Source: Octopus vulgaris
Lineage: Eukaryota
Direction of reading: 5' to 3'
Length of the DNA: 64,000 nucleotides
Assembly (NCBI GenBank): GCA_951406725.2
Contig: OX597816.1
Coordinates: 151,218,001-151,282,000 of the forward strand
Shown in pieces: positions 20,517 to 55,721 of this stretch. Positions within the stretch are counted from its first letter, which is position 1. Every line of letters starts with the position of its first letter. Under the pieces are notes generated by a model that did no database searches, was not told the DNA's origin, and saw nothing but the letters and a program-made list of their open reading frames with translations. The position numbers and the translations under genes were made by a program.

Positions 20517-21029
20517 ATGGAGCCTTATACAAGAAGAAGATATACAAGACTTGAGACAATAGAAGCTATGAAGCTTTTATGTCTTCCAAGTTCGAACTTT
20601 GTATCAAAAATTCCAAATCGTCCTGCTGGGGGAGAAATCTATTTATTCCAACCTAGACTTCGTATGTATTTGGATAATTGGCGAACAGATGGCTATCGTT
20701 GGTCGAACAGAGGTACATCGACTATGTCCCTCAACAGACGCCCAGCTTTACGGAAAAGTTTCTTCTATTTAATGACCAAAGAAGGACAGAAAAACAATTT
20801 TCAAAAGCATGTCTACAGATTACTGGACAGTGATCAGAAAGTTGTTATTCATTATATCGGCGACGAAAAACTGTGTACGGATACGTCGGTTGCTCCCAGC
20901 AGAAAAAAAAGCCGACATTCTTCGCATTCAGTTCGATCCATCTTACCTTTGCCTGAACAACTTATTAGAAAGAAAGATTTATTTGAAAGGAATAATGGAC
21001 ACGTTATGAAGAAAGCAGATATATTTGAG
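20517..21029 (+). CDS. First coding exon encoding a CG-1-like (CAMTA-type) DNA-binding domain
   Basis: RPAGGEIYLF...WRTDGYRW...FQKHVYRLL...VVIHY parallels the CG-1 consensus (RPxxGSxxL...RKDGYxW...FHRRCYWLL...VLVHY); intact 171 codons; strong phase-0 donor GAG|gtaagt. Confidence 0.75.
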
Positions 21030-22619
21030 GTAAGTTTTATCTTAGACTTGGGTTACTTGTTTGAATTGTAAGAATTGAAAACTTATTTTGAAAGAATATA
21101 CATAACGGAATGGAGAAGTAACCCGTACATCTTTATTACTGATAGGTAACAAAAACTTACACTAATCAATGTATAAAGTGTAATAAAAAGATAATAAGTT
21201 AATTTGATTTTCTATTCGAGTGCAATATATTGCAGATATATTTTAGAAATAGCGTTTTATGTTTTTTTAATTTTTTTCGGGAGAACCGGGGAGAGGAATA
21301 TGATAATTCTGTAACAGTTCAAAATTTTTTAAAGATCTTTCAAACGAAGGACCATGTAATATATGGAGTTAGGTTTAATATATAGTATAGTTTAGCGTGT
21401 TCCTCCTAACTAGGATAATAACTGGTCCTCGGTATTGAAAACAAGCGTATTTATAATAGAGAAACAACTGATCATCGATCTTGACTAAATTGTTTCTAAA
21501 TGTAAATTTGTGCTCGAGCACAATATAATTGATATTTTACTTAAGCACAGATAGAAATACATTATAGTCAGGAATGCAGTTATATATTGTAAGCAGGCTC
21601 ATAGAGAGATATATAAAGTACTATTATAAACATCGCAGAGCTGTTTTCTGCTAATGTTGTGTCTGGCCTATATTCCTAATTGGTATGACTTTTTTGTACT
21701 GATAGCGTTAATGCACTTTGGAAATGTATCAATACCACACGTTCCTATATTTTTATTCCATTTTTATCACTATGTGAGGTGAGTTCATGTTGAGGGAGAG
21801 GGAGAATAAATGCTCCGTGTTTAATAACTCATGGTTCTGAATTGTAGTTTTTTTGCCGGTTCCCTCCCTCCGAAACAGGAAGTGAACTCTTAGCAAAGTT
21901 GACACGCCCACTATTACAACTTGGTTTTTAATGCTTACCAAGCAATTAGAACTTTAGATAGTTTAATTTTATTTTTCAAACATTAAGAATGGCTGTATTT
22001 AATTTTTATTTATATGAAATCGCACGAAAAATATAAAAAAAAAATTGTAAGCTAAAAAATAAATGTATGCTTGACTGGATCTCTTTAGGTTGTTTCCAAC
22101 AGATCAATCTCCACCCTTTGTAAACTGTACGCTTGTAAAACAGGAGTTTATTTATGAATTAAGTTGGCCCAAATGGCAAGGCATCTGACTCAATGCTTTA
22201 CTTACGAAAACAATTGTCAGTTATTTAGTTCCCTAACTGAAGTGGTGTCAATTTGTCCAAGATGCATAAAAAAAAGTCATTTCAAATCAGCAGCGTAAAA
22301 TTATAATACCATTAACATTTACCTTGCTTTATTCTACACTTCTGTTCTCTACTCCGTTTTAACTCGTAAGTTACCAGGTCTGTACCAGAAGTCATACTTA
22401 GTCGTAGAACAAGTGTTCTCAGTCTAGCGATGGAAAGATATGTTTTAGTTATATTATGCCATTAGTGATTGGTTGTGAAAATTGTATATTCCTCTCAAGT
22501 ACACTGTTAAACATGCGATTTAAGAATGAATGCTTGTTTTTATAATCAGATTTTTCTCTGCTAATTAAAATACTAGTACTGATACTGCAAGATGTTCAGA
22601 CTAAATTTGATAGTTTGCA

Positions 22620-23200
22620 TAAAAGGAAAAGGAAACATATCAACTAGATTATGCCTGGGAGATAACAGTTTACTTAAAGTAGCTGCTCTCAGGTTTCACC
22701 TCAGCCTCAAAAAAGGCTCCAGAACCTGACTCATGCATTCTTCAGTGTCCCTGTGAAGATCTTCAAACATCTCCTTAATCTTGGCCACCAGCTTAGCCTT
22801 GTGTTGCAGGCTTCACATAGCAGTCTGAATTGAGCCTGAAGATCTGTTCAAAGATGTGTGGATGAATTTCAGTGTGCAACCACAGTCAGAAAGCCTGCTG
22901 TGGCTCTTCCTACTAGCCATGACTCCATAGTCTCTGTTGCAGCTGTTCATGTCTCGTCTTACAACCCTTACAGTATTCAACAGGCATTGAGCAGTAGTCA
23001 TGATGTTAGCATTTTGATACTCAGTGCAAAGCATCATGATACTGGTAACTCTTTTCCAATATTCAGATTGCTTCCAGTCCTTTGTGTCAGCTAACTTTTT
23101 CTCAACCACAACTTTAATCTTTATGCTTTCCAATGCTGTTGATTGTTAACCAATACATAAAGCTGTTCCTGAAAAAAAGAGACATAAAAAATTGTATATA
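22620..23200 (-). mobile_element. Degenerate, internally deleted Tc1/mariner-like fragment
   Basis: Minus-strand fragments such as AKLVAKIKEMFEDLHRD resemble the C-terminus of maT/Tc1 transposases. Confidence 0.4.
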
Positions 23201-23419
23201 CCATGTTTGTTTTCAATATTTTTTCATGATCTACTCTCAGTGGGTCTTGCAAGATTTTGTGCACATGAACCTTTCAGTGTCCTTTCTATCACTAAAGATC
23301 TTAGTTGTGTTTTATAAGAAAGAGACCTCATAAATATGTGTAAACTTTTATTACATTCTTTTATTATTGAGGTAAGCTTTAGTCCAAAATCAGTTTTTGA
23401 GTGATGAGGACACTGAGCT

Positions 23420-29372: not shown

Positions 29373-32300
29373 TGTCGTTGTTGTTTAATGTCCACTTTCC
29401 ATGCTGGCATGGGTTTGACTGGGGGCTAGCGAGCCAGAAGGGCTTGTTATGCTGCAATGGCATAGGCCACAGTTACGGTCTCACTTGGTTTGCATATCAC
29501 CAACTGTCTTGGTCACTTGTCACAGCATTATTGGAACCCAATGTATGTAGAACTGCATTCCTAGCGAAAATAGTTCTCCAAACATTGACCAGTCATTAAT
29601 CCTGATGACTTCTGGCCAACCAGAAAATGCATTAACAAATCAACATAAGTACATAACCATTTGTGTACACATGATCATTGCTTTTCTTCAATTGACCAAG
29701 TATGCTCAGTAACTTTTGGTATGGGTTAAATTTGACATTTAGAGCAGTTTCAAACAATTTTCAACATCATTACAATATCCAGAACACCAGGCTTCTAGCC
29801 ACAGTCTACTTGTAGTAGTTATAGGCTCCACAATGATCATCTTTGTGTACAGCTTTTCTGAAAATTTGTCGCAACACCACAGGAACAATAGCCTTGTGTC
29901 TTCATCTAATCAATTGATTTTGAATAGATGAAAGCCAAAATTTACCTGGTTCAATTTGTAATTAGGGTCCAGAAGGATACCAACTACTGTAAAATATTTT
30001 AGTTCAGATTCTTCCGTCTCCACTAATAGAAATATTAATTATTTATGTTAGTAAAAAAAGCTACAAATGAATCAACCAGGATATGACTAGTATGTATTTT
30101 ATCAATCTCAGACAAATTCAGCAGAATTTGAATAGAGACATAACTAAATGCAGCAGTCTACTGTTTCTGCTACTCTAGCATTTTGGAATAAGAAGATATG
30201 CTCTTGGGATGAAGCATGAAAAAATCTTAGTTAATCCTAAATTAACATTAAAACAATTTCTGCAGCAAGAAGCAAATTTCATACTATCCAAGATTCAAAG
30301 CAAATAATTTTCTTAATACTTCATTAATTTCTTTGATAATTTACAAATAAAACTTTATCTTCAACTCTAATGGTATACGTGAAACTATTCTTTCCTTTTA
30401 GTGTATATAAAACTGTATTATTTGAAGTAAAATAATTAAATATTTCGTATTTGGATTTGGTTTGCATGATTCTTTATGTGAGTTCATGTGTTAAAGCATA
30501 TTCTCTTGTGTCTGGAGAGAGAAGGTTGCAAGACATAACAAAAAGTTTTAGAAAAATAAATGAGTGGAAATTTTACTGGTGAGTGTGTTAAATTATAAGG
30601 CACTAAAAGAGAATGACTCTTCCCAGACACAACAGAATTAACAATTAACTCTACTAATTTGCCGTTGTTATCATCATCATCGTAATTCGTCGTTGTTTTA
30701 TATTTTAGATAAAAAAAGTCTGGGAAAAAGTGGTCCCATCCCAATCTATATACAGCAACTACCTTCTGGATAGTCATCGTAAGTATTATAAAATATTTAT
30801 TTCATTCTATACATGTTACACGTGCTCATTTTTATAGTTTGGCAATCTTTGTCACTTTATTCAAAGTAATAAAAAATAGAGACATAAGTGATTTTGATTA
30901 AAATTTTACTAACAACAAATTCATGAGCTTAAAATATTATATATCCATTGTATTATGTCCCAGGATTAGTTATATCACTAGAAGACTTTACTGAGCTGAA
31001 AACTAAATGGTATAGTTGTATGGTCAATGGTTGGAAAGCCATTGAAATAGTTGCATAAGTATTATTCAATATTTTTTGTTTCTAATACATACATTTTATA
31101 ACAAGCTAGCAGTGTAAAGGTCTGTAAAGTAGTCTTTTACAATAATTGTGTTTTGCTACCTCTGTTTGTCAGACTCATTATATCCATCCAACCAACTCAC
31201 CAAAGGATACACTTTTTGTCACATATGTTTACATGGTTCATAGCTTTAAATATCCACTTCAGTGTATGCGAAATTAATGAAGCTGTGGGATTCAAATTTT
31301 GGGAGGGAGTAAAAATAATTTTATTTTTAATTGCTTTTCTTTTACAATTTATTGGAGTATGCAGGTAATCTGTCTTAAGCATGCTATGAACTACTTGTTT
31401 TAGGACAAACAAAAACAATAGAAACACATTGGTACAGATATGGTTCATAGCAACATGATTTTTTCAGCTATAATACTTAATAGTATTTGAATACATTTGA
31501 AACTACTATTTAATGAAAAACTTTTTTGTTTTTATGTAACCTTTTGGTAATATTGAGTCAGATATTTCTTCCAGTTACAGAATGGAGGGGTAAGCACGTT
31601 TCATTCTTCTCATCCATACCTATTATACTTCCATGTTCTCATTGAGAGCAGGATTTTTTTCACTTTGCTGTGAAAAAATATCAAATGAAAAGGACTTACA
31701 GAAACACTGATATCGGTATTAAGTTGTCTAATATCTAATTAATGCAGTGAAATCCTATTCTAATGAGCTATAACTTATATACTAGATTCTTCCAATCATT
31801 AAATAGAAAGTGAAAGAAAAACTTATTTTTCTTTGTATCTATTGAGTGCTCTTCTCAATTCAATCTATTTTCTATGATCTTTTAAAATTGGGTAACACAA
31901 AGAACTTCACAGACTATTGCTACAAGATATTTTCATGACTGCATAAGTAAATTAATGTGGCCAAAATTTGTAAGTGTAGAAAAAATTTGGGGGAATATTT
32001 AGATTGTAATAGGTCTTCCAGTCTTAACAGGTCACAAACTATAATGCATGAAGTTAGCAATTATGCAAATATCACTTTGAGAGGATTTAATTAATTTTAT
32101 GTTGGGTGTGTAAGAAAAATCCAAAAGCTAGCTTGGTTATAGATGAGCTGAAAATATATATGAGAAAAAACAAACAGATTTGATATCTGAAGCATTAATC
32201 ATCATTTTAGCTTCTATTTAACATATTTTTTATGTCATCTCCGTGAGGTTTAACTTTTTCAAGTTCTTGCTTAGATTTTTCTTGGGTCGATACCTTCTAC

Positions 32301-33020
32301 CATCAACTTATGGCACTTCAGATAAATTACATTGTTCAGATCATAAATCAACCTGAACTTTGGCCAGGGGACTATTTACCACCATTGTCAGCTACAATAA
32401 CACTTGTATCATTACTGCCACCACCACCACCCTACTATCATTCATATTACCCCTGATCAAGAGAACCATTATCCAGTCACTCATCCTGCTAAAAATAGTT
32501 GTCATATCTCCCTCAAATTGCACCTTATCATCTATAATAATAAAAGCAAACTCCTGTGTCCATCTTGGACCCCTGTATCTACATTTGCTGTATGTACAGC
32601 AAATGTAGACCCCGCCTACATTTGCTGTACATACAAATATTATACCTTTTTGAGGTTAATGTTGACATTATTACCTGGAAACGAAATCGAAAAAAAAAAT
32701 AATGCAATGGGTGTAAAAAAACAAAGATGTAGAAAACGAATATGGAAACAAAAATGCGCGGAAAGCAACAAGGGGGTGGGGAGAGAACTTCAGAAAATTC
32801 ACAAGATCTGAATTTTTCCCTCATAACTTTTAGGAAAATGGGTTTTTTTTAAAATGAAATTTTATATAAATACCTTTCAAACGGCAAAATGCAATTAACA
32901 ATATGAACAAATTACCTTCAAGTCTATGATGCAATACCGCATAAAAATTCAATGCGCACGGTTTATGTCGCAGGGATACTCCAAGTAATTTATCATTAAC
33001 AACAAGGTGAAACATTTTCA

Positions 33021-33734
33021 GATCTTTTCGGTTTGAACGTCAGTTTTTTAAAATAATTTCTATGTAACTAAAAAATTTTAAACTTCGTATACTGGTAGAA
33101 TGTGTTTATAAAACATCTTTTTCTCTTGGCTTTCTTGAGAAAATTCTATAGTTTGCAAGATATTTGGTCTTTAATTTCTTGCATTTCGGCAATTTCAACC
33201 AATCAATGACGTTTATTGAGGTGAAAACTATTTCTGTTGTAACATTTTATGGTAGCGTCATATGAAAATGTCCCTGTTTTTTATGAGAAAAAAAGATACC
33301 CTGTGGCCATGAACTGAAGGGTCACTCGTAAACAGAGCTGGATAACAAAACCGTTCCCTCTTTAGTGTCCACCCATAGTTATGACCCTAGTATCGATCTA
33401 TTGCATTTCAATCTGTTTTAGGGTTAGGGGTGGGGGGAAGGATATCTATTTTTTTCTTCAGAAATGTAAATAAACCCAATCTGTTTCTTAAACGAGGGAC
33501 ATTTTCATATTTCACCGCCAGAACATTTTACGGCAGATGTTTTCACCTCAATAGACGTCATTGATTGGTTGAAATTACCAAAACTGAAGAAAATATCTTA
33601 CAAATTACAGAATTTTCTCAAGAAAGCCAAGAGAAAAAATATTTTATAAACACATTCTACCAGTATGAGAAGTTTAAAAGTGTTTAGTTACATAGAAATT
33701 ATTTTTAAAAAATACCGTTCAAACCGAAAAGATC
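33021..33734. mobile_element. Foldback-type MITE with ~250-bp terminal inverted repeats
   Basis: gatcttttcggtttgaacg...gaggtgaaaac is mirrored by gttttcacctc...cgttcaaaccgaaaagatc. Confidence 0.85.
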
Positions 33735-33879
33735 CGGAATATCTTTTATCGGCGTAGATACAAAAATTCAATTCGAAAATAACTGCTCAGTAAAGTGGCA
33801 ATCCAAGATAAAGCTCTGAAACTTGGGGTGCCTGGAAATGACAAACTTTTCAAAACAAGCATTTCATAGTTGGGATACC

Positions 33880-34239
33880 CAGCGCTGGATTAACCACGAA
33901 GCTTAGGGGGTACCACAGAAATGGTAAATGGTTTACGGCACAAAAGAAATCACTTTAAACTTGCTGAAATAATATTCGGAATGCCTTTATCTCTAAGTAT
34001 AGATGCTGATGTGTTACCTAAGATTAATTTTGAGGATGTAGGAGAAAACTTTTCAAATATAAATAAAGTAAAACTATACAAAAATAAACATTTTCCCTCT
34101 TACTGTTTTATTTCGTTTCGAAAAATAAAAAATTATTTTATGGTTTGTTATTGTTTATATTTTGAATTACATAAGTTTTTATGAGGGCACCAAAATCTTT
34201 TAAGTGCTTAGGGCCTCGATAGGTCTTAATCCAGTTCTG
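33880..34239. mobile_element. hAT-type MITE
   Basis: 8-bp TSD GGGATACC on both sides; TIRs CAGCGCTGGATTAA / TTAATCCAGTTCTG. Confidence 0.8.
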
Positions 34240-34589
34240 GGGATACCTCGTTTCTTTTCTTTCTTCTAATGAAATTAAAATCTAAGGTGTTCGAGCATTT
34301 TAGGCAGAATAAAAATATTTATTATTTTCAAATTAAGGGTGAGGAAAATGTACGAGTGCAAAAGAATACCTTCCATAACTTATTAAGCAACACAAGAAAA
34401 TTCACATTTTCTTTTACAAAACACCAGACTTCTTGGTGTTTTAATTATGTATTATTACTTTAGAATTACAATGAATTTTAAACAGTTGGCATTCCGAAAA
34501 TGTTAGTGCAAATGATTTGGCTTCTATGAATAGCTTTTCAATAAGAAATTATAGGCCCTCATGTTGAGTCGTACAGAAAAGAGAAGTAG

Positions 34590-34763
34590 GTTCAATATCG
34601 AAACTCGAACCCCGTATCTAACACTTGTCAGACAGCCGTGTGTAACCTATTCATCAACAGAATGCCTGTAATGCAGTCGATAACGCGGTTGGGTTAATTC
34701 CTGGTTTTTGCCTCAATTTTGTTTCTTCTATCTCATATCATTTTGCGTTATACATCTTAGCAG
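34590..34763 (+). promoter_or_regulatory. Candidate promoter and non-coding first exon upstream of the THAP exons
   Basis: CpG-rich patch ending in a consensus donor CAG|gtaaat at 34763; candidate acceptors cggcag| lie 20 nt before each THAP ATG. Confidence 0.45.
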
Positions 34764-35199
34764 GTAAATTTTCGAAGATTAAAAATGACAATTGTAAACT
34801 TCAGAGCTCTTTTTTCTTTATTCACTAAAGAAATCCGAATTGCTTGATGTTATTTAATTTGTTGCAGCCGTGACAACTAAGGAAAGCTATATCAGTGTAG
34901 TAAATTTCCTTCCTCGATATATTTTGTTAACTAACCAAGCATTTACCTACACGATACCTATTTGATTATAATTTGTATTCCGTAACTTAGCTCACCGACA
35001 GTCACGTGATACACTTATTGCCTTCCATACTTTATGCTTAGCACCGCTACACAAAAAAATCTGTTATTTAATACTTATAAGGCAACAATGTTGTTATCTC
35101 ACTTTTATATTCATTGGAAACAACCAGTCTCCAACTTAGGACATTTTCTCAACTTTCATAATGTTTTAAAATACGGCAGGGTTTGAATGAATTTCCATT

Positions 35200-35452
35200 A
35201 TGCCGTCTGACTGTATTGTTAAAGGCTGTCACTCGAGCAGTCGTATAGACAAGTCAATAACATTTTTTCTACTACCTTGGGACAACATACAGCTCCGAAC
35301 AATCTGGGTTAGATTGGCCGGTTACGACCCCCTCGATGCCAACGACGTGAAGCACATAACTAGGGAGCATAGCATTTGTAGTCTCCATTTTGTTGATAAC
35401 CAGAATAACTTACTGCACAGCAGCATTCCGACTCTGAATCTTCCTATCCAAG
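35200..35452 (+). CDS. THAP zinc-finger first coding exon, copy 1
   Basis: C5-x4-C10...P26...W36...C60-x2-H63-F64...IPTL (AVPTIF box); in-frame stop just upstream; phase-1 donor AAG|gtacga. Confidence 0.88.
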
Positions 35453-41021: not shown

Positions 41022-41833
41022 GTATGTATATAATAATGGACTCTCTTGTTAAGAACAAAACATGACTCAGGAGGAAACAAAGCATTGTTGTTGAACAACA
41101 TGCATAAATTTACTTTCAAATCAAATTTGTATGGAACTTATCTAATGCACTCCTTTTGTAACCTGATGTGCCAAGTTATGCAAAAAGAAAAAAAAAAAAA
41201 AAGAAGCATGTTATGGAATACAGAGATGCCAAGCCCAAACAGATGATTGCTGATCTCTTTTTACCAGTATCATGTGGCAAGTTCCCCTTGCTGAAAAGTT
41301 TTGTCCAATACTACATAACATGTGCCTAAATGGATCATAGGCACAAACTGGAATACAGAAAATATTATATACTTAATGCTATGTTGAGATTTATAGAGTT
41401 CTATCACTCTTCAAGTGGTCTTACAATGTCACCATTTCTCATTTCAAGTACTTATACAACACCACTACTTATCGCTAGAAGTACCTTCCATGTGGGGAGC
41501 GGGTAACTAACATATAGTTTTTATTACTACTAACTAGCGTTCATATCAAATCTCTTTTATATAAAACTATGTAAAAAGTAGGTGTAAGACAAAATGAAAA
41601 CGCTCTCCTAAAGGTAGGGCTATTTGTACGAGGTGAATGCAGAATATCAAATTCTGGTGTACATCTGAAGCCATGTATGTTTACGGTTTTAATGTAGGGA
41701 TGTTTTGGAGTGAACTCACTCTTTTGAAAGTTACCAATGTAGACTGAATTCAGATTATAATGTTGCAGAAGAATCCACTAGCCTTTATTCAAGCCATTGT
41801 TGTATCTCACGAATTTAAGATTTGAAACTTTGG

Positions 41834-42278
41834 TTAATGTTGACAAATCGAAAAAAAAAAAAAATAGTGCAACGGGTGTAATAAAAAAAGGTGTAGGAAA
41901 CGAATATGAAAACAAAAATTCCGGGAAAGCAACGGGGGTGGAGAGAGGCCTTCGAAAAATTCACAAGATCCGATGTGTTTCCCTCATAACTTTTAGGAAA
42001 ATATGTTTTTTTTTAATGAAATTTTTTATAAATACCTTTCAAACGGTGTAGATTACTATTATAAAGAAATTTGTGGGGAAAATCTTTTCCTGGGGGCTGA
42101 GGAGAGGACTATGGAAAATTCACAAGATCCGAGTTTTTCCCTAGTAACTGAAAACATAATCCTTTTGAAGTCACAAATTAGGCTTTTCCTCAGGAATTTA
42201 AATGCTAAACGTCCCTTTGAAAGGTTCAGGTCCTTCTATATATTATATAGATAGATATGTGTGTGTGTATACATACAT

Positions 42279-42321
<43 letters not shown>

Positions 42322-42873
42322 GTAGGACCCAAACCCTCTTCAGAGGGATGTTTAGCATCTAAGTTCCTGAGGAAAAGCCTAATTTGTGATTTCAAAAGGA
42401 TTATATTTTCCTCAAAGTTACGAGGGAAAAACTCAGCTCTTGTGAATTTTCCGAAGTCCTCTCCCACCCCCGTTGCTCTCCGCGCATTTTTGTTTTCAGG
42501 TTCGTTTCCTACTTGGGTGTGAAGTAGAAAGATGTACATTTTCCTCTATGTTACGAGGTAAAAACATCGGATCTTGTGAATTTTCCATAGTCCTCTCCCC
42601 ACCCCCTCGGAAAAGATTTTCCCCACAAATTTCTTTATAATCGAAATCTAAACCGTTTGAAAGGTATTTTTTATAAAATTTCACTTAAAAACACCTTATT
42701 TTCCAAAAAGAGGGTAAAGCATAAGATCTTGTGAATTTTCCGAAGGCCTCTCCCCACCCCCTGTTGCTTTCCTGGAATTTTTGTTTTCATATTTGTTTCC
42801 TACACCTTTTTTTTTACACCCGTTGCACTATTCTTTTTTTGATCTCGTTTTCTGGTAATAATGTCAACATTAA
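41834..42873. repeat. ~1-kb inverted repeat with a central TA/CA microsatellite; partial copy of one arm at ~32656-32885
   Basis: ttaatgttgaca...gtgcaacgggtgta...ggaaacgaatatgaaaac is mirrored by gttttcatatttgtttcc...acccgttgcac...tgtcaacattaa. Confidence 0.85.
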
Positions 42874-45490
42874 TCGAAATTTTTCCTGTTTTTAACAGAA
42901 GCTGTAACTATTCTGCTACTCGCTTAAAAGTTATTCTAAAAATAAACAATCACATCATCAAGATCTCAGAGCTGTGATATAATTGATGAGTTATTGAAAA
43001 CAATGTGAATAATGAGAATAATCTGAATGCTTAAGAGTTACGGAGCATTGTTTAGGTGTTGGACAATTACATCAAAAATGTTTCTGAAATTATATTAAGA
43101 TTATAGTTTTAGAAACAAAAATATTGGAGAGACATTTTATTAATAATATTTATGATATTAAATGGAAAGACCCCCCCCCCCATTTTCTCGCAATTTTTTT
43201 CCCAAAAACTCGCGTTTTCGGAATTTTTAAATGTCTGCACCCCCCTTACTACCTCCCAATTTCTTCGTTTTCACTTCTTTCCGTAACCTTAACTCTAAAT
43301 TAGTGGTGGGGTACAAAAGGAACTCTTGCCTATTATATTCTCAGGTGATAAGAATTAGAGCAATCAAAACAATCGCTTTTTAAATGCATAAATGCAACGC
43401 ACTGCCTTTAATATCACAGAAAAACCAAGAGGGTTTATGGGAATTTTTCTGGAATATAATTCAGATTTTAATCATAAAATGTAATTGTTGTTTTTATCTC
43501 GATTGGGATGTAAATGATTGTCTTTGGAGTAACTTGTCCTGTTCACTTTTCAGTGTATCTCATGTACGGAAAACTCACCGACCAACAAGTTACCTGTTAG
43601 CAAATTCACTTTTAAGCAATTCGGTTTATATTTAATAAAAGCTTAAATTCTCTTGTCATTCGAACATATGATAGTTTTTGTAGTTTTGGGAGGGTCATTA
43701 CGTCGGTAATAATAAACACACGCACTATTATTATTAGTGCAATGAACCTCCCAAGACACAAGATTTGTTTCAACACGAATTCACATCAAGAATCTTGCAA
43801 ACCAAATGCATAAATAAAATGATAGTTCAAATGTTTTTAAAATATAACGTTTGAATTTTTCGAATCAAAGAGGATACAAAAAAATGTATATTATTAGCCA
43901 TTTTATTAAAGAAAAACAACTGAAAAAAGACAGTACTGTGGAAATGTGTGAAATATCAAAAATAAGCCATAGACGAATGAGTACAGTCGGTGACACAAAA
44001 GTGAACACACCCACATTGTCGATGCATCAAAAATTTGTGAGTTAACTTTTTAACAAGTTGTTGATCACCGTTGATCGGCAAATTGCTGTTGGGGAATTTG
44101 TAAGCAGTGCATTTAAAACTTCGTTATTTAATGTATCTTTTTTGTGAATTGTAGTGTATCGAGCATATCGATTGATCACATAGAAGTTGTCTCGTTGGCT
44201 TGTGTTAGATTGTTTTTCATGAGTGCTTTTGCTATTGTATTTAATGAACGTATATATTCGATAATGAACATTTTCTGTTTTAGTACTTTAAAAAAAAATT
44301 CAATATGTAACTTGCGGGTGTGTGGTAGAGTTACGCCCCTTTATGCCTAATTGAAATGATTTTGAAAGTCGGTCGTCTCCCTGCAAAATCCCCCAACAAA
44401 ACAAGTAGACCGTAGCACAGTTTCAAAAGAAAAGAATTCTTCCGCGGATACCAAACTATTTATTTTTCTCCTGCACAGAGGTCCATGTTTATTATTATTT
44501 TATTAATAGTTATTCATTTCTTACGTTGACATACGACGTTAGAATAATTGAGTTGCCGATTTGAGAATATGTTCATTGTTTTCTAACGAGTAACAATTCG
44601 TGTGTTTAATAGCTTACAGCCGAGATTCAAAACGAGTTATGCTTGTATACAATAGGACTCATCACTAAGAAGGTAATAAAGATAACTGCTGTGAGAGTGT
44701 CCTTTCAAGAGGAAATTACAAATCTATTTCTTTTTTAATGTACTTTCTTTCTAATTCAATCAGAATGTCTCAAAATTAATGTTATTTATTTAAAATTGCT
44801 TTCTGAAAATTAACTGCCCAAACTGTGTAAAATAACTTAGTTTCTTTCTCTGAAGTAATTTACTTTTCTCCCTTCTCTATACTTTCGTTGGAAGCAAAGT
44901 GAGTAGTCATTAAAATATCCACTAAATGATCAGAAGTTTGCATCCTCTGATTGGTTTGTAATTTGGCAAAGACGATCGGTAACTAAATGGATACCATAAA
45001 ACGATGATTTACTACTAAGTAAAACGGAATCACGAGAAAACACGAGCGAAAAGGAGAGCCTCTACGCAGTCATTTGGTTGGTAGAAATAGCAGCCAAAGC
45101 TCATATCTACACATAGGTGGAGAGGGTTGAATATTACATCTGTGAAAACTAATATATATAATAGAGTATAATTGTGACTTCTTCATTTAAATACTTGCAT
45201 TAATAAACCGATTCCTTTTTGAGAATTTTGATCACTTATATTGCCGAACATGTTAAAGTGTAAATCCTTTCATGTGCAACTTAAAATATTCTCGAAGCGC
45301 GATAATGCAAATTATTTTAATTTGCTTCGAGATTAAAATAACCTCGAAACAAATTAAAATAATCTCAGAGCAAATTAAATAGATATTTTTTTATATGAAA
45401 ACGTAACGGACGTTTGTGTTTTGAAGTGCTTGGATTTACGTTGGATAGTTTTAAATTGGAATACATTGCATCGTTTAATTTATCCCTACA

Positions 45491-46657
45491 ATGCTACGTT
45501 TGCTTACAGATAATGAAAATCAGTCCGAAAACAGCGAAAGCTTGACTCAAAGTATAAGTACTTCTATTTTACGAGGTGTCAAACGAGGAAGCAAGCGAGG
45601 GCCATACAAGAAGTCTGCACTCGAAACTCGAAAGCGTGTACTGTCTGCAGCTGAACGAGGAAAAGATTTGAAATCTATTGCTGCAACACATGGCGTGAAG
45701 AAGACAACTGCATATAATTGGGTGCGCAGAGATCGTGCATCGCATTTGCGCCGTGGAGGTGTCCGTGATAAGGTGAAGAAGATAGAGCATGAACATATCG
45801 AGTCACTTATTGAGAGGTTAAACGAATGTCCACAATTAACATTGAAGAATCTTTGCGAACATTTACTTTCAAAGTATGGATTGATTGTGTCCGAACAAAC
45901 TATAGCCAGTCATCTAGATGGAAGAATGATTTCATTGAAGCAAGTACATTTATGCCCAGAGACGGTCAACAATCAGAAAAACAAGCTTTTGAGGAAGGAG
46001 TACATCGAGACAGTGATGAAATCATCTGCTGAAGGAAAGTTCTTTGTATATATCGGCAAGTCAAATGTCAACCTTTTCCTTAGAAGAAGTAAAGGCGGGT
46101 TAATGAAAGGAACACGTTCAGTTGCGCATCTGCCTTCTTCCAAAGGTCCGACTATCCATATGATTGGGGCTGTTTGTCAAGCTGGATCGATCGATTTCCA
46201 AAGAACAAGAGGAAGTTATCGGAGTGACTCGTGCAATGTGTGGGTGCGAGACCTGTTGCAAAACGTTATTGGCAATGGTACTTCGTGTGAACAAATAGTG
46301 ATGGTTACTGACAATGCCCCTTGCTACTCGGATTTAGAAAACGTCTTAAGTGAGTTCCAAGGAGCAACACTTCTTCGTCTTGCGCCTTATTCACCCATGT
46401 TAAATCCAGTTGAGGGTGTCTGGAGTGTGATTAAGACTCAACTCAAACAGAAGGAAGCCAATCAGCTTTCCGAATTGATAGCAGGTGATCCACAAAATAT
46501 ATTATCAAAATCTGAATGGAAACTTAGATTTGTGGAAAGGTTGATTGACGAAAGTGTAACCGTCATTACGCCTAGTATGTGTTTGAATTTCGTTAATCAC
46601 ATCCAGTTGTTATTTGGACGTGCCCTCCAAATGAAAGATATGCCTGTTGGTCAGTAA
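45491..46657 (+). CDS. Intact Tc1/IS630-like transposase-derived ORF (388 aa), first catalytic Asp lost; possible terminal exon from 45510
   Basis: N-terminal HTH (LKSIAATHGVKKTTAYNWVR); YIGKSNVN in place of YIDExxF; VTDNAPCY and LAPYSPMLNPVEGVW (D-x33-E) retained; phase-1 acceptor tttgcttacag| at 45509. Confidence 0.85.
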   Translation: MLRLLTDNENQSENSESLTQSISTSILRGVKRGSKRGPYKKSALETRKRVLSAAERGKDLKSIAATHGVKKTTAYNWVRRDRASHLRRGGVRDKVKKIEHEHIESLIERLNECPQLTLKNLCEHLLSKYGLIVSEQTIASHLDGRMISLKQVHLCPETVNNQKNKLLRKEYIETVMKSSAEGKFFVYIGKSNVNLFLRRSKGGLMKGTRSVAHLPSSKGPTIHMIGAVCQAGSIDFQRTRGSYRSDSCNVWVRDLLQNVIGNGTSCEQIVMVTDNAPCYSDLENVLSEFQGATLLRLAPYSPMLNPVEGVWSVIKTQLKQKEANQLSELIAGDPQNILSKSEWKLRFVERLIDESVTVITPSMCLNFVNHIQLLFGRALQMKDMPVGQ

Positions 46658-47227
46658 AAACAGTTTTACAAACTCATCATGTGAGAATGTTGTTGGTATG
46701 GCTATTTATATGACTGAATCGTTTTAACTTGAGGTGTGTAGGTACTTTGGGCTTGTAACTGTAGTTCTAAAATAGATGATGCCCATAAATTCATGAAAGA
46801 TATTTTGATACTTGTTCTATAATTATTGCCAGTTAAAATTAAACTAATTTATTACTCGTTAGATAAAGGCACCGGGAATATGGTAGGTGGCATTACCTAA
46901 ATTAGAAAAGCAAAACATTAATTTTGTTTCGAGATTATTTTTATGTTTCATTGTTATTTTATTTCGATATTATTTTAATTTTCAATGAAAAGGATTTGGT
47001 TCTGTGGTGAAAATGCACACTAACCACTGTATTTAAAACTGGGAAAACGATATCGTAATGCGTCGTCTTAAACGCCGAGAACTTAGAAATGACGGTCTAA
47101 CGTCTACAGTAATCGGGTTGGGTGAACCAGACTCATAGCGCTTGCGCGAGATTGTTAGTTGTTATCTTGGTGTCACATGCGTTGTGACTATTGTTTCTAC
47201 GATTTCAAGATATCATAAAGGCTCGTC

Positions 47228-47767
47228 ATGGCGCAAACACCTACACGAAGGAAATACCAAGCTGGGTTTAAGTTGAACGTAATAGCATATGCAAAGAAGC
47301 ACAATAATTGCGCTGCTGCACGAGAATATGGTGTAACGGAGAAGGTGGTGAGAGATTGGAGATTAAAAGAAGATATATTAAAGAAAATCCCTAAGAGCAA
47401 ATGTGCAATGAGAAGAGGTAGTGCACATTGGCCAAATTTAGAAAATTATTTAGCAGATATAGTTTGCGAGTATCGAAAAAATGGATACGGTATATCAAGA
47501 AATAAAATCCGCAATATGGCACTCGAGTGGGCAAAAGAAAATCAAGAGGATTGTAAAGACTTCAAAGCCACCGCTTCATGGTGTAGTCGATTCATGGAGA
47601 GACATAACTTAGTATTGAGAAAGAGAACCAAATTAGCGAAGAAATTACCTACAGAGCTTGACACCGAAATAACTTATTCCCGTCGTTCTAAATTAATGCA
47701 GCGTAAAAAAAGTAATTACTTTCTTTATATCCCTTTGTCTTTTTTATTTGTAATTTCCGGCCTCTAA
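47228..47767 (+). CDS. pogo-type BrkDBD + CENP-B HTH DNA-binding module (POGK-like N-terminus) without the DDE domain
   Basis: RRKYQAGFKLNVIAYAKKHNNCAAAREYGVTEKVVRDWR, WPNLENYL and FKATASWCSRFMERHNLVLRKRT; possible phase-1 donors at 47703 and 47712. Confidence 0.8.
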   Translation: MAQTPTRRKYQAGFKLNVIAYAKKHNNCAAAREYGVTEKVVRDWRLKEDILKKIPKSKCAMRRGSAHWPNLENYLADIVCEYRKNGYGISRNKIRNMALEWAKENQEDCKDFKATASWCSRFMERHNLVLRKRTKLAKKLPTELDTEITYSRRSKLMQRKKSNYFLYIPLSFLFVISGL

Positions 47768-47934
47768 CATGCTATATTTCGTGTGAAACTTTGTCTTATA
47801 CGTTAAATATAAGACGAAATAAACATTTTGAGGGGAAATTTACGAAGTCGTCTTATATACCTTGTCGCATTATAGACCGACCCACACGGTCATTTTTCTA
47901 TCGGTGCATTATTATAGTCGGGATTAACTTTTCT

Positions 47935-48200
47935 TGACACCGCCATTAATGTTTATGTTGGCGTTTGTTGGTATGTGAAAAGTTGCACAACGCATAATTC
48001 AAAATCGAAGGTGGTACGAAATCTCGAAGCGAAAAAGATAAAATAGCTTGTTTACTGTTTGGATTAAAAACCCATACGGCGGAAGTAAAGAACATGAACT
48101 GCACCCACTTTCGGCTTTTGGGGAGTTTTTTTCCTACAGAAACCCACTTTTTTGACTGCAGAGATTCCGAATCGGCACTTCTTGTTACTTTCACTCTTCC
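47935..48200 (+). promoter_or_regulatory. Candidate CpG-rich promoter (YY1-like and ETS motifs)
   Basis: CCGCCATT at 47940, CGGAAGT at 48080, locally high CpG density. Confidence 0.45.
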
Positions 48201-49905
48201 TACGAAATTGTGGGTTTCTTGCATAAGTTTTGTTGCACTTTTTCAACTCTTTACTAAAAATTCCCTGATAGGAATAAAAGTAATGTTTTATAACTTTCTT
48301 GGTCCAAGCTAAGTATTATATGTTTCTCTTCAGAACATGTTCTCGGCTGGTGTATGTTCCTGGAAAAGTATTTTAGAATTTGGTGCCATTTAATCAGATT
48401 GTATGTCTGTCATCGTACTTCAATAGATGAAAATGAAGGGGGTTTTTTTTGTTTTTTTTGTCCCAAAGGTTTATAAGTAAATGGCTAAGACAACTAGCAC
48501 ATTGGTGTAAATTGATATTCCACAACAAGCATTCATTGTGTTACTTAACTGTGCTTACCGAGGAATTATGAAAAATATATGATTTAGAATACGTTACACT
48601 TCTGCTTTATCTGTTTTTCGTTTGCTGCTAGAGTCACTATTGTTAAGGGCTCACAGTTTTCAACAATTCGTGAAAGCGTGAACATTTACTTTCTTTTTTT
48701 TTTTTTTTGTATCAAATATAGAAGTTTTAAAATTATTACTTAAAACTGTTACTAATAATTTTAAAATGTAGATTATATATTGTTATCAGTGAGAACTCAT
48801 AATAGTTGCTCTTTGTAATGGGATAAACCGTTAATAATTAATGTATCTGATAATTATTTGGAAGGTGAAGATCCAACGATGGTAAATTTTTACTATTACA
48901 CTTGTCTCGTCAGTATGTATGGGTTTCTTAGAGAACAAGTGGAGTCCGACGGTTTTGATGGTCATATTCGTTCAAAACTCGTAAAAAAAGACTTAGGAAA
49001 AACGTACATATTATCTTCAAAGTATGACAGATGAAATAGTACGACTTTGGCTTATTGAGATTATGGTATACTGAGAAATTATTTCCGATTCATGATCCAC
49101 ACATTTTCAAAAAGTAACTCAATAATGACTAAGTAGGTATAAGCTGTTAGCAGTCTGTAACCAAATCGTTGCTTATTTAATTTTCATGAATAGCTCTTTT
49201 CTTTCATCACAAATGCATCTAAAAGAAAATAAAAGAGTATTTCAAGAAGTGTTATCTTTATATCGTCCATGTAGTATTACATGAAAATTATTGAACCTAT
49301 AAACCACAAATGAATTTGTACGTGGTTGAGAAGTTTGCTTACCAACGACATGATTTGGGGCAGTCCCTCTGAATGGCACCTTGGGCAATATCTTCTTCTA
49401 TAGTACTGAACTGATCAAAGCTTTATGATTGGATTTGGTTGACAGAAACCGAAAGAAGGCCATCATATGTGTGTTTGCATCACATGATAGTTGTAAATGA
49501 GCATCACCATACCAGTGGTGTCCTTCGTTTCTAAACCTCTGTGAAACCATGTCTGACCAAGGGGAAATAATACGGTGCTTGGAAACAGGCGGGTTGGCAA
49601 CAAAGGCATCAAGCCATAGATGATTTGCTTTGACAAATTCTGTCTGGCTCGTATAACCATTGAAAAGTGGAGTTTAAAATGATGATAGCAATTTAATTTG
49701 CTTCCTTAATTACACTAGTAAAAGTTGACTAATGAGTTAATTAAAACAAAGCTTTATTGATTTTAGAACTTTTGTAGCCACAGCATTTCTAAATTATTCT
49801 GAATAGTAATAGGGTTAATTTACCAGCACATAATTTCATATTTAGTAAATATGGTTATACAACCATTGGGGTATTAAATTAAGATGGACAGTAATCCACA
49901 ATCTG

Positions 49906-50270
49906 TCATCATCATCATCGTTTAACGTCCACTTTCCATGCTAGCATGGGTTGGACGGTTCAACTGGGGTCTGGGAAGCCAGAAGGCTGCACCAGGCCAG
50001 TCAGATCTGGCAGTGTTTCTACAGCTGGATGCCCTTCCTAACGCCAACCACTCCGTGAGTTAGTGGGTGCTTTTTATGTGCCACTGACACAGGTGTCAGA
50101 CGAGGCTGGAGAACGACCACGCTCGGATGGTGCTTTTTACGTGCCACCGGCACGGAGGCCAGGCGAGGCTGGCAACGACCACGATCGGATGGTGTTTGTT
50201 ATGTGCCACTTGTATGGAGGCCAGTTGATGCGGTGCTGGCTACGACCACGTTCAGATGGTTCTCTTATGT
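49906..50270 (-). mobile_element. RTE-tail element
   Basis: Reverse complement of 4000-4316-like sequence; (CAT)n at the left end. Confidence 0.8.
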
Positions 50271-50380
50271 ATGCCTGCAAATTAAAAAAAAGTATTCATA
50301 ATATATTCATTATCAGTATAAATAGTAAATAATATGAAGACTGTATCAATGTATTTGACACTGTTTTATTTAAATTTCAG

Positions 50381-50445
50381 GTTCCAATGAGTATGACAAG
50401 ATTCTTGAAACTGCCTCAGAACTCTATACAGCTAATCAACTTCCG
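50381..50445 (+). CDS. BTB gene internal exon A (phase 1 to 0): (G)SNEYDKILETASELYTANQLP
   Basis: Acceptor aaatttcag| and donor CCG|gtaaaa; 65 nt, with the end phase matching exon B. Confidence 0.65.
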
Positions 50446-50629
50446 GTAAAAATAATATTAAAATTTCTTAGTAGTAGCTGGCTGTGTTAAAAGGGTTTCA
50501 TCCAATTGAAAAGTTATGTAAGCACTCTGCTGCCCACACTATTGTTGACCCAATACATCATGCTATAAATAGATATAAGTATATGGACCCTTCCACATTT
50601 ACATGTACTTTTTCTATATTAGTATAGAG

Positions 50630-51324: not shown

Positions 51325-51515
51325 GTAAAATCACAAGTGATTAAATCAGCCCATCAACAAATTACTCCTTCATATTCTTTAAATAAGTTAGATGTGGAAC
51401 ACCGGCGGAAAAATCCTTCTTCTTCAGCATCGAAATCCATCAATAGCTTATCAGATGCAAACCAATCATTTTCACCACCTGCAAAAGTTCCTAAAAAACA
51501 TAACTTCTCTAAACC
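51325..51515 (+). CDS. BTB gene internal exon B (phase 0 to 2), S/P/K-rich linker
   Basis: Acceptor ttccttgtag| and donor CC|gtgagt; open frame VKSQVIKS...KHNFSKP. Confidence 0.7.
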
Positions 51516-52844: not shown

Positions 52845-53175
52845 TTTTATTTCAGCTGGTCAAACTCATGTTATTGACAAACCAGCTGCTGTTTCATCGT
52901 CAACTACTGATACTAGATCCCAACCAATAGATTGCTCTAGTAGCTCTTCCAAAAATCAAAGTTTTTCATCAAAAAATATTCAAAAACCACAAACTGCTCC
53001 TAAATCTGAGAAACAGTTGCAAATGAGTCCAACAATAGATGTATCTCACCAAAAAGAGAAACGCATGCTTGTAGTTCCAAACCATCAGTCATCTGTTATG
53101 TCAAACATGTCATCATTATGGAAAGCTGGTCGGTTGTGTGATGCTTACATCAGCAATGGTACAGTTAGTATTATG
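52845..53175 (+). CDS. BTB gene exon C (phase 2 to 0): linker + N-terminal part of BTB/POZ
   Basis: Long poly-T acceptor ctag| and donor ATG|gtaagt; HQSSVMSNMSSLWKAGRLCDAYI. Confidence 0.82.
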
Positions 53176-54731
53176 GTAAGTTTGCATTCAGACTATGTTT
53201 GTAGATTCTTCTTCCCTTCTCTAGAAGAAGAGTTAATTAAAATAGCGTTTACTTTTATTTTGCTATTTTGTTGGAAGTTATAAGTATAGTTAAGTGACTC
53301 CAGATATGAATGCCTGAGCAAAGTATTGAAGTGAAAAGAACTAAGAAAGGAAAACAGTGTAGATGGAAGTAAGCAAATAATATGAATGACATTTATTATG
53401 TCATTGCCTTTCTACTGTTTGTTGACTACCACCACTATTAAGTGGAAGATAATGACAATTCTGATGACCACATAATGCTTTTCTTTGAATGTATTTTTAT
53501 TGGTGGGTGAAGACTATTGCATTTACAATTTGGAACTGTTGAGGATTCTTGAACTTTCTAAATACACTTAGAATAAATCATCAGCAAACAGCTACACTAA
53601 TTTTTCTCAACTATATGCATATTTGGTTCCAGTATTGACAACAGATTTCATTGTTATGTAAGAGTCAAAGATGGAGAACACTGGGATGGTTCAGCAGCCA
53701 ATAGTTATGGGTTGGGAATGTTGACAAATTAAATATTGGCATATGACAGTCTCAGCTTTTTACTGCGTCATATTCTATTTAATTCCGTTTTCACTGGACC
53801 ATTAAAAGAACACCACACTATCACACTAATTACAAAACAAGCATCCTTCTACTAGGAAACTAATATAATTTGACTTACTGCAGCTCTTTTTAGAAAAAAA
53901 AAACTATATAGATGCCATTTTGAACTCAACTGGTTTGATGTTCTTGTCCTCCTCATCGACCAATTTTACTCAGTTAAAAATTTTGGGAATACATTTAGTT
54001 TTGATTTAACTTGAGTTATGTTAATACTTTAGTAAAAAATTCTAGTATAAAAAATATATTTTACTGCTATAAAGCCCAGTTTTACTTAATAGTAAACTTG
54101 AAAGGAATTAACATGAATTTGTTAGGATTGTGGGATGTGAAATAAGTTAATCCAAAGACCAAGCCTTTGGTAATACAATAGTGTTAATTTCTAACATAGA
54201 CACCATCATACTATTTGGTAAAGAGTATAAATGATTATGTGACATTTAAATAGGTGAACGGCAAATTTAATCTCCGGATTTGAATTCAGAACATAAAAGT
54301 ACGGAACCAAATATCACGATGCAGTTTATGTGATGTTCTATTGGTTCTGTTAATCCATCATCTTCTCTAGACAAGACAATTCATGGCCTTAAACATTGGG
54401 CCAGAAATTATAGAGGAGAGGGTTAATTGATTATATCAATCCTAGTGTTCAACTGGTACTTATTTTAACAACTCCAAAAGGATGAAAGGCAAAATTGATC
54501 TCAGTTGAATTTAAACTCAGACCACAAAGCCTGAAGAAATGCTGCTAAGCACTTAGTCTGATGTGCTAACGATTCTGCTAGGTTGCCACCTTACTATCTT
54601 TTAATAATACTACTAACTTGTGGGATTTGAAATTAGGGCAAATGGGATTTGATTGGAATATGTTCCCTCTGGGGATAAGTTAATCTTTTGTTTTCATTCT
54701 ATTAATTTTTGCCTTTGATTTTCATTTGCAG

Positions 54732-55721
54732 GTTCATCAAATTGTCTTTGGAGCTGTATGTCCCAAAGTGTTACCTGTATTTTACAATGCTTTTCATTCT
54801 GACTTACCTGCTGTAACATTCCCTTCCACTGTGAGTGAAGAAGCACTATTAGCTTTCTGTGAGTATATGTACGATGGTGTGCTGGAACTAGATAAAAACA
54901 TCCTGTCGCAATTGAAAATTATTGCCCAGTGTCTTGACATGCAGGGTTTTGATCAGCTTTGTAACAACCAGTTAAAAATAGCAGAAAATTCAGTAACAGT
55001 ACCAACAGATATGTTGGAGTCAATACTTACTGAACCTTGCTCTTCATCAGGACTTATCTCAGACAATGCTACAAACACTCAAATTACATGCCAAGATAAT
55101 TTCACTCCTGTTTCTCAAGTAATTCCTTCCAAACTTATCACTCTTTACAATCGTAATCTTGAGGAAAATTCCAATGTACTTTCCAGCAAATTTCCAACAG
55201 AGATAAAAAGAAAAGTTGTGAAACAGGAAATTTCTGATACTAGTAATGAACAAGATGATATTAACAGTAACCATGAAGATGACCTGATTAACAAACCACA
55301 AATCAAAGTAGAATTGATTGGTCCAGATGATCATCGATATGGATACCAGGACTTTTTGTTAGCACAACAAGGGTCAGACATTTCTGATGCAGATTTAACT
55401 CAGTCAAGCTTACTTTCTCATAACACATCTCTGGATAACTTTGAACAAAATTCTGATATACAGCAAACTGAACAATCATTATTATCATCTTCATCCCTCT
55501 CTCCTCATTTCTCACTTCATTCAGAATCTCATCCAGTTGGCTACATAACTCCTACATCAATCCGTAGACTAGTAAGTTGTGATAAATTCCAACATCTGAA
55601 AAATTCTGAGAATTCTAAGCCTTATCCTGTTAGTTTGTTCAGTGCAAATTATGAACCAATATCATTATCTTCATCCAACTTACAGTTAGTAAATGTTAAA
55701 AAGAAGCATATAGCTAGATGA
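54732..55721 (+). CDS. BTB gene terminal exon D: rest of BTB/POZ + disordered tail
   Basis: Phase-0 acceptor ttgcag|; VHQIVFGAVCP...VSEEALLAFCEYMYDGVLEL...LKIIAQCLDMQGFDQLC matches the BTB consensus; psi-KxE motifs VKQE and IKVE; stop at 55721. Confidence 0.85.
   Translation, partial: VHQIVFGAVCPKVLPVFYNAFHSDLPAVTFPSTVSEEALLAFCEYMYDGVLELDKNILSQLKIIAQCLDMQGFDQLCNNQLKIAENSVTVPTDMLESILTEPCSSSGLISDNATNTQITCQDNFTPVSQVIPSKLITLYNRNLEENSNVLSSKFPTEIKRKVVKQEISDTSNEQDDINSNHEDDLINKPQIKVELIGPDDHRYGYQDFLLAQQGSDISDADLTQSSLLSHNTSLDNFEQNSDIQQTEQSLLSSSSLSPHFSLHSESHPVGYITPTSIRRLVSCDKFQHLKNSENSKPYPVSLFSANYEPISLSSSNLQLVNVKKKHIAR

Follow-up and report, generated by a model that had tools for sequence, protein, structure and literature searches.

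In the clustered protocadherins and in UGT1A, an array of variable 5' exons feeds a constant set of 3' exons; there the members of the array are paralogues of one another, and the proteins made have roles other than transcription control. In Drosophila mod(mdg4) and lola, and in broad, fruitless, and tramtrack, which are of the same kind, one BTB region is shared by many isoforms that differ in a DNA-binding-type domain, as at the octopus locus described here. More than 30 isoforms are reported for mod(mdg4) (PMC13490949). A single Drosophila gene is described as encoding BEAF-32A and BEAF-32B, which differ in their N-terminal DNA-binding domain and have a C-terminal domain for self-association in common (PMC5021357). 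According to the text of a further report, KRABINER and other KRAB-transposase genes splice a transposase exon to a host regulatory domain (10.1101/2020.05.07.082677), and ZBTB11-type proteins are said to carry a mobile-element (integrase-like) domain before the BTB (PMC12062965). We analyzed a stretch of 64,000 nucleotides (nt) of Octopus vulgaris DNA (GenBank assembly GCA_951406725.2, contig OX597816.1, positions 151,218,001 to 151,282,000 of the forward strand), hereafter the window, which contains a BTB gene with several alternative 5' coding exons, or heads.

Our results showed that the window holds a four-head member of a gene family whose largest member has about 30 heads. A first-pass annotation had proposed that variable 5' DNA-binding exons are joined to a constant 3' BTB region. 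Isoform models, RNA-type contigs, CpG islands, a predicted BTB homodimer, paralogues, and abalone gene models all agree with this proposal, and the architecture alone, alternative 5' heads on shared BTB exons, is very probably correct. As it had stated, five modules lie on the plus strand at the positions it gave, and Pfam identified them as CG-1, two THAP domains, a DDE_3 with a helix-turn-helix (HTH), and a BrkDBD with HTH_Tnp_Tc5. The exons of the gene are listed below, with lengths in nt or amino acids (aa) and the Tc1 exon given as an open reading frame (ORF).

20517..21029, plus strand: variable coding exon 1, CG-1 domain (Pfam E 2.5e-9), phase-0 donor GAG/gtaagt, models P0002, P0007, P0008, and P0005
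30709..30778, plus strand: linker exon L (a collector exon) of 70 nt, entered in phase 0 and left in phase 1, absent from the first-pass annotation, from models and a listed joint to exon A
35200..35452, plus strand: variable exon 2a, THAP domain, phase-1 donor AAG/gtacga, first exon type of model P0004
36330..36582, plus strand: variable exon 2b, THAP tandem duplicate in a unit of about 1.13 kb, model P0001 (609 aa)
45491..46649, plus strand: variable exon 3, Tc1/IS630-like transposase, intact 388-aa ORF, DDE_3 and HTH (E 1.1e-17)
47228..47711, plus strand: variable exon 4, BrkDBD and Tc5/CENP-B HTH, phase-1 donor AAA/gtaatt, model P0006 (686 aa)
50381..50445, plus strand: constant exon A, with the phase-1 acceptor common to all variable exons
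51325..51515, plus strand: constant exon B, linker, from the in-frame join and public models
52845..53175, plus strand: constant exon C, linker and N-terminal part of the BTB (dimerization extension), from the in-frame join and models
54732..55721, plus strand: constant exon D, rest of the BTB and tail, from the in-frame join, Pfam, and genome matches

Four isoform types labelled Octopus vulgaris share a common end of 524 aa: CG-1 (719 aa), THAP (609 aa), Tc1 (911 aa, P0009), and HTH (686 aa). Matching models exist in O. sinensis, O. bimaculoides, and Argonauta; three of them place Tc1 as a cassette behind CG-1 or THAP, via an acceptor near 45510. Exons A to D bear the expected AG and GT ends and join in frame behind a phase-1 exon, and the 609 aa predicted for THAP with A to D were recovered in our computation. 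The Tc1 exon is a probable further fusion partner, absent from the earlier reading, with a phase-1 donor after 46649 (TTG/gtcagt), 3 nt ahead of its stop codon. Of the two HTH donors proposed earlier, both keep the frame (683 and 686 aa), but the donor seen in the contigs is 47711; none of the listed pieces ends at 47702, which we rejected. The proposed direct join of CG-1 to exon B is also in frame (674 aa), yet it is used by no model seen. Instead, models of four species route CG-1 through linker L to exon A, and CG-1 with L and A to D makes up the 719-aa product. In-frame stops lie just before the THAP and HTH ATGs, as had been noted; the distance is three codons there, and a stop also precedes the Tc1 ATG by four.

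Contigs from 4 of 24 listed runs, belonging to four studies and classed as RNA by guess, were aligned over 30560-50559, a stretch that runs from linker L to exon A. The joint 30778->50381, which has GT..AG borders, jumps over 19.6 kb, and is anchored by 30 letters on its shorter side, was listed in all four runs. In run X2, record 17 continues beyond linker L with 1727 more letters upstream, and a 10-nt extension with one mismatch fits the end of the CG-1 exon. The THAP contigs halt at the predicted donors in 4/4 runs, three on copy 1 (X1, X5, and X13 at 35450, with 31-32 letters left over) and one on copy 2 (X2 record 19 at 36580, with 30). For HTH, position 47711 is the last one aligned in contigs of X1, X2, and X5, each with a remainder of 30 letters (3/4 runs), and a Tc1 contig, X1 record 6, halts at 46648, also with 30 (1/4 runs). 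These leftovers of 30-32 letters are the same overhang as that of the listed joint. We rejected a retrocopy as the source of the joined contigs, given that exons C and D have a single 100% genome match each.

As a proxy for promoters, we analyzed the observed/expected (o/e) ratio of CpG. Over the 600 nt that precede a variable exon it ranges from 0.99 to 1.31 for the five of them (1.03 at the CG-1 exon), and before L and A-D from 0.00 to 0.68. The variable exons sit in CpG-retaining islands at 18-22, 33-38, and 43-49 kb, and the shared exons lie outside such islands. The ratio drops to about 0.1 past exon D and in the body of a Ras gene; a Ras-family GTPase exon lies at 1249-1503 (+), and its CpG-depleted 3' region precedes the CG-1 island. 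In the largest paralogue, 29 of 30 variable starts have an o/e of at least 0.57 (median 1.06), and the lone low start (0.10) belongs to an exon that models P0084 and P0085 place internally. Its three collector exons stand at 0.18-0.20, and the median in 12 D exons is 0.22. Gene-body methylation is established in invertebrates, and the pattern fits unmethylated islands within a methylated gene body. A separate promoter for each variable exon is likely, and both the ratios and the in-frame stops upstream of the ATGs fit it.

The BTB domain (Pfam E 5.4e-6 on the full model P0006) spans residues ~242-362 of the 609-aa protein. It carries the beta1/alpha1 dimerization extension of the ZBTB/KLHL types, here reading MLVVPNHQSS, with weak sequence matches (E 8e-5 to 0.02); a look-up in the ESM Atlas gave generic BTB clusters only. 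The domain is predicted to form a homodimer, with an ipSAE of 0.85 against 0.01 for the best control, 100% contact agreement between runs, and a pLDDT of at least 90, although the prediction may reflect memory of solved BTB dimers. The mark applied was reached by 21/30 solved homodimers and 0/23 monomers (17/29 and 0/30 for eukaryotes). Exon D continues into a tail of ~240 aa, rich in S/T/Q/D/E and low in complexity, with the family motifs GPxDxxYG and YPxxLF and two SUMO-like psi-K-x-E motifs. The latter occur in 20 of 22 family proteins checked and suggest a SUMO-linked repressor or scaffold. No C-terminal C2H2 zinc-finger array was found by Pfam in the window's models, and no BED or BESS domain was matched in its ORFs or models.

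The heads had all been taken for transposon-derived, in a window whose mobile DNA transposons are decayed. Mariner-type fragments, located at 13.2-14.0 and 17.6-18.4 kb, are indeed no longer intact. A transposon origin holds for Tc1 and is supported for HTH; none was demonstrated for CG-1 or the window's THAP. The Tc1 exon is a whole captured transposon element, with relics of terminal inverted repeats (TIRs) on both sides and a dispersed, decayed family. The two relics are as follows.

45262..45380, plus strand: left TIR relic of the Tc1/IS630-like element, 76-85% complementary to 46917-46997
46917..46997, plus strand: right TIR relic of the same element, pairing with the left relic; flanks align to relatives

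A sub-repeat of the inverted repeat occurs at five further genomic places (control, 0), and the flanks together with the ORF align to dispersed relatives at 67-92% (the flanks at 68-92%). Among the 125 of 965 candidates that were scored, 28 relatives have at least 40% identity; 26 of them carry stops, each aligns with about a third of the query at most, and the window copy is the only near-full-length one found. Its ORF has no acidic residue at the expected first catalytic position (FVYIGKS). Elsewhere, at L093:1395-1711, we observed an array whose units of ~21 nt match the repeat unit of the Tc1 TIRs; it may be a satellite or a miniature inverted-repeat element derived from the Tc1 family. 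The HTH head (BrkDBD 4.2e-14, HTH_Tnp_Tc5 1.3e-11) has a pogo-type DNA-binding region without the DDE part, and 149 of 150 scored matches are dispersed relatives. These matches support a transposon origin, the exon being the probable DNA-binding front of a pogo-like family.

CG-1 has two matches in the genome, that is, one besides the window copy, so that a transposon origin is not demonstrated; the literature listing did not establish a link between CG-1 and transposases either. Compared at the protein level, as in all our comparisons between species, the CG-1 domain is identical at 89 of 92 residues (97%) in Octopus and Argonauta, while the linker is 56% and the BTB 87% identical. Both THAP modules (Pfam E 2.4e-9 and 3.6e-9) are real, as first annotated. 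The copies are 97.9% identical over 963 nt, 3 of 84 residues differ, and the pair is by this measure a recent tandem duplicate. Since they are nearly identical, they would offer one specificity, not the two that had been counted. The window THAP is 47% identical to two heads of the largest paralogue. An assembly artefact was rejected as the source of the pair, as the junction near 36017 is spanned by another study's contig (X2 record 18). The X1 THAP contig placed on copy 1 (34889-35450) bears copy-2 letters at five listed places and may represent an allele, gene conversion, or a chimeric contig.

The constant exons belong to a multigene family, with 23-25 genome matches for C and D. Four more genes lie directly downstream, twelve are on the minus strand at C3:148.96-149.17 Mb, and others are found elsewhere. 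The downstream neighbors bear their own upstream THAP, CG-1-like, CENP-B, and STPR ORFs. We had considered their D-like exons as alternative last exons of the window gene, but each has its own C exon, and they are thus separate paralogues. In the 2.8 Gb genome, 16 of 31 THAP matches lie upstream of a family BTB on the same strand (including one on C2, 39 kb away and counted unfetched), and 6 of the remaining 15 form one dispersed family. Head counts for the paralogues other than the largest are lower bounds, as of 317 filtered ORFs only part of those outside the largest array were searched with Pfam.

The largest paralogue lies at C3:149.17-149.36 Mb (gene at 149.172 Mb), 2 Mb from the window gene, with an array over 180 kb. 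Among 52 gene-strand ORFs (50 from the filter and two added by hand), 28 match DNA-binding or transposase-type Pfam families at E <=0.01, versus 0 of 24 on the opposite strand. The types include THAP, CENP-B/Tc5, BrkDBD, Psq, FLYWCH, DUF3504, DUF4817, Tc3, and related families. Three collector exons are nested inside the array, one of which gives the last histidine and the tail of the THAP domain to several half-THAP heads. The best donor after the domain is in the phase of the next shared exon for 28 of 30 ORFs (8/9, 10/10, and 5/5 for phase 0; 5/6 for phase 1), and the change to phase 1 is confined to the one block that is followed by a phase-1 acceptor. Control ORFs had phases 114/81/91 of 286, giving a binomial P of about 2e-10. 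This test used a generic donor matrix and domain ends set by hand, on 27 Pfam-positive ORFs and three picked by eye, with one Tc5 fragment and one locus-edge ORF omitted. The layout, with its concordance of strand and splice phase, is beyond chance. In O. bimaculoides, RefSeq isoforms of this gene are numbered up to X36, and 32 fetched proteins share its constant start. Between Octopus and Argonauta, a THAP domain of the locus is 94% identical against 42% for its flank. The THAP head at the N-terminus of P0084/P0085 in O. bimaculoides comes from a dispersed family. The O. vulgaris genome has 23 matches to it (57-84%; C1-C11), and the corresponding locus holds none of them, a pattern consistent with recent capture or with loss.

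Several further observations were made on these paralogues. At C3:149197378-149197473 (L047) and 149210876-149227135, at least four half-THAP heads end at C-S/T-K and a shared HFVGG exon completes the fold. Protein P0149 (C3:151358547-151382728, L016-L019) combines the head and C exon of the fourth plus-strand paralogue with the D exon of the fifth, and may reflect 3' swapping between neighbors or a model error. The minus-strand paralogues (C3:148965000-149130000, L024-L040) have STPR-type repeat heads amid Helitron remnants, which suggests Helitrons as donors of these heads. Four ORFs of 330-400 aa with DUF3504/QRICH1 similarity, presumably of tyrosine-recombinase/Crypton origin, stand as heads at C3:149176239-149231256 and C23:26793582-26794793. 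Another Octopus BTB locus, LOC106879774/LOC115220336 (P0162, P0163, P0297, P0301, and P0302), has at least seven isoform models, with DUF3504, three FLYWCH, and CENP-B heads. Within the window, a 515-aa open reverse transcriptase ORF of a retrotransposon without long terminal repeats lies at 2075-3619 (+) with an embedded PHD-like finger, and similar copies are found at neighboring loci.

In a word-index search with the BTB profile, the named matches were all cephalopod (63 matches among 8000 scored). Logan proteins clustered with or near cuttlefish records, here called cuttlefish-type, share a suffix of 838 aa under THAP versus ZSWIM3_N heads and another of 718 aa under THAP versus FLYWCH heads. 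A full HMMER search of the BTB reached abalone, and 3 of 10 representatives looked up were Haliotis. All 12 proteins fetched for Haliotis rufescens LOC124116851, gene models whose read support was not seen, differ in their N-terminus on one BTB suffix of 638 aa (THAP 2, half-THAP 5, FLYWCH 2, C2H2 2, MADF 1). Nine of the 12 pass through a segment HFVGG.GPT..HPDP like that of the octopus collector, with the same break, and half-THAP heads of octopus and abalone are 46-57% identical (15 pairs). A common ancestry of the design is likely, though parallel capture from one THAP family may instead account for the resemblance. In the BTB tree, P0177-P0179, P0195, and P0197 have near-identical N-terminal BTBs with DDE_1, CENP-B, C2H2, or zf-Tnp_2 C-termini, and are possibly lola-like loci of other animals.

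The explanation that we consider likely for the window gene combines alternative promoters, cis-splicing, and dimeric regulators of variable specificity. Each variable exon would be a first coding exon with its own unmethylated promoter, cis-spliced to the next phase-compatible shared exon. New heads would arise when a DNA transposon inserts upstream or in an intron and supplies a promoter, a DNA-binding ORF, and a donor, or by duplication of an existing head. Because the BTB is identical across isoforms, co-expressed isoforms could form mixed dimers reading two kinds of site. Through their BTB and the tail with its SUMO-like motifs, the products may repress transcription or shape chromatin architecture.

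A number of points weigh against this explanation. The joins of THAP, Tc1, and HTH to exon A rest on models and contig ends and not on any listed joint, and the models labelled O. vulgaris may be built on the same genome, so that they are not independent; their read support was not seen. In X2, two overlapping contigs span 45423-47711 unbroken: read-through or intron-retaining RNA exists, and a stand-alone Tc1 protein could be made from it. The DNA upstream of the large locus keeps its CpG (o/e 0.7-0.95 beyond 149.36 Mb); non-genic DNA thus retains CpG, and a high ratio alone does not make a promoter. The Tc1 exon, with 335 of 372 residues identical to O. bimaculoides, is less conserved than CG-1, THAP, and the constant part, and in Argonauta only the CG-1 head of the window gene was seen. 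The abalone BTB falls outside the cephalopod clade in a quick tree of the BTB alone (120 columns, many forks open), so that one-to-one orthology is no more than possible. DNA binding, repression, and heterodimer formation by the isoforms are ascribed to them here from their domains and motifs.

The alternative that survives best is transposon surveillance, in which each captured domain directs a BTB corepressor to the remnants of its own family, as in the vertebrate KRAB-transposase fusions, which are reported to repress through cognate TIRs (10.1101/2020.05.07.082677). Cognate remnants do exist for Tc1 (relatives, and the TIR motif at five other places) and for HTH (149 relatives), and one head looks lineage-specific. 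However, many heads have no transposon family demonstrated here (CG-1 with its two matches; the C2H2 and MADF heads of abalone), and the ancient half-THAP heads better suit host regulatory roles. As a full account surveillance seems doubtful to us; it is compatible with promoter choice and dimeric regulators, of which it may be the first stage.

It appears distinctly unlikely that one promoter upstream serves every head by way of cassette or mutually exclusive exons, or that the heads are attached by trans-splicing in the manner of mod(mdg4). Models P0003, P0004, and P0010 do use Tc1 as a cassette behind CG-1+L or THAP, AG dinucleotides lie ~20 nt before both THAP ATGs, and a Tc1 contig (X1 record 5) has 26 unplaced letters upstream of 45441. 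A single promoter agrees poorly with a separate CpG island for each head, with in-frame stops just ahead of the ATGs, and with the listed THAP and HTH contigs, which extend unspliced upstream (to 34889, 35138, 36238, and 47032). As for trans-splicing, every head has the orientation of the gene and its place in the series, and cis-splicing therefore suffices.

We give still less weight to tolerated transposon noise, in which intronic transposons bring promoters and splice downstream, and the resulting low-level chimeric RNAs are annotated although selection ignores them. The retained TIR relics and dispersed relatives of Tc1, the recent THAP duplication, the O. bimaculoides head from a dispersed THAP family (23 matches, none at the corresponding locus), and the single-digit summed contig depths in the THAP, Tc1, and HTH bins, a poor measure, would all be expected from noise. 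Against it stand domains conserved above their linkers in the comparison with Argonauta, 28/30 phase matches with complete strand bias, a Tc1 ORF still open although 26 of 28 relatives carry stops, and half-THAP heads 46-57% identical between octopus and abalone. Noise may apply to the youngest heads. That the heads mainly act as protein-interaction or short dominant-negative modules, made as unspliced head-only proteins, is very improbable: every head ORF does have a stop shortly past the donor, and head-only Logan proteins exist (P0011, possibly from DNA contigs), but all heads belong to DNA-binding families and the domain itself is the conserved part.

Alternative promoters with cis-splicing and dimeric regulators also allow a broader and more speculative proposal, which we put forward tentatively: loci of this kind could be molluscan "landing pads" that predate the divergence of gastropods and cephalopods and grew into a family in the latter. 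Any DNA transposon inserted in the variable region with the correct orientation and phase would contribute its promoter and its DNA-binding domain and turn into a BTB-linked repressor, of its own family first and of host genes later. If true, cell-specific promoter choice and BTB dimerization would give hundreds of head pairs per gene (465 from 30 heads). Such a landing pad would be to protostomes what the KRAB zinc-finger system is elsewhere and, alongside the octopus protocadherins, a candidate code for cell identity.

In the literature searched, with subscription papers and most supplements outside the search, we found no description of this design. The five family LOC numbers occur in no main text and one of them in a supplement; the isoforms sit in RefSeq as uncharacterized. 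Mukherjee and Moroz (2023; PMC10027918), who cover octopus THAP-BTB, CENPB-BTB, and Psq-BTB entries, report that Octopus THAP and CENPB factors mostly carry a BTB. Their supplementary table has 11 rows of LOC106877732 under different gene names (8 inspected) and no occurrence of the window locus, LOC106872006. In the parts of their article examined, the BTB is taken to be part of the transposons, each entry counts as a domestication of its own, and alternative exons are not mentioned. The consulted part of a paper on oyster transcription factors (PMC12111275) does not describe the design. With 11 rows of one table going back to one locus, some of the THAP, Psq, and CENP-B "expansions" reported for cephalopods would be isoforms of a few loci, which gene-level RNA-seq and single-cell atlases would merge. 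The ~30-head paralogue and the abalone models point to an old and apparently undescribed molluscan design by which a single gene yields many likely transcription factors. In this design a THAP fold is completed across the junction of variable and shared exons, and the captures found at any one locus differ widely in age. It offers a natural series for asking how transposase domains turn into transcription factors. The isoforms are also candidates on which combinatorial regulation and transposon control could be tested in molluscs.

Compared with the known systems, the octopus BTB resembles those of ZBTB9, ZBTB17, ZBTB18, ZBTB7A, and PLZF in its N-terminal dimerization extension; unlike the ZBTB factors, the octopus proteins have no C-terminal C2H2 array, and their DNA-binding domains are alternative and N-terminal. 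The FxLRWN motif of Tramtrack is not present in the octopus BTB, where the extension reads as given above, and the source consulted states that this motif was not found in Mollusca (PMC11426971). KRABINER has its host domain at the N-terminus and its transposon in an intron farther downstream, whereas in octopus the captured part supplies the start and many captures share one acceptor. The heads come from unrelated families, with only subsets being duplicates, in contrast to the variable exons of protocadherins and UGT1A; promoter choice is inferred for the octopus. Relative to mod(mdg4) and lola, the variable exons are all 5', the heads N-terminal, and the BTB internal, a mirror image; the heads are drawn from many unrelated families and, unlike in mod(mdg4), nothing requires trans-splicing. 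If borne out, molluscs would have solved the lola/mod(mdg4) problem independently and in mirror image, as a second phylum and with heads of far greater diversity. The closest match in orientation is Drosophila BEAF-32, which likewise has alternative N-terminal DNA-binding exons and a shared self-association domain (the octopus dimer being predicted). BEAF-32 has two isoforms, with BED fingers and a BESS domain, while the octopus family has 4 to ~30 heads of at least nine Pfam types, a BTB, nested collectors, and many genes.

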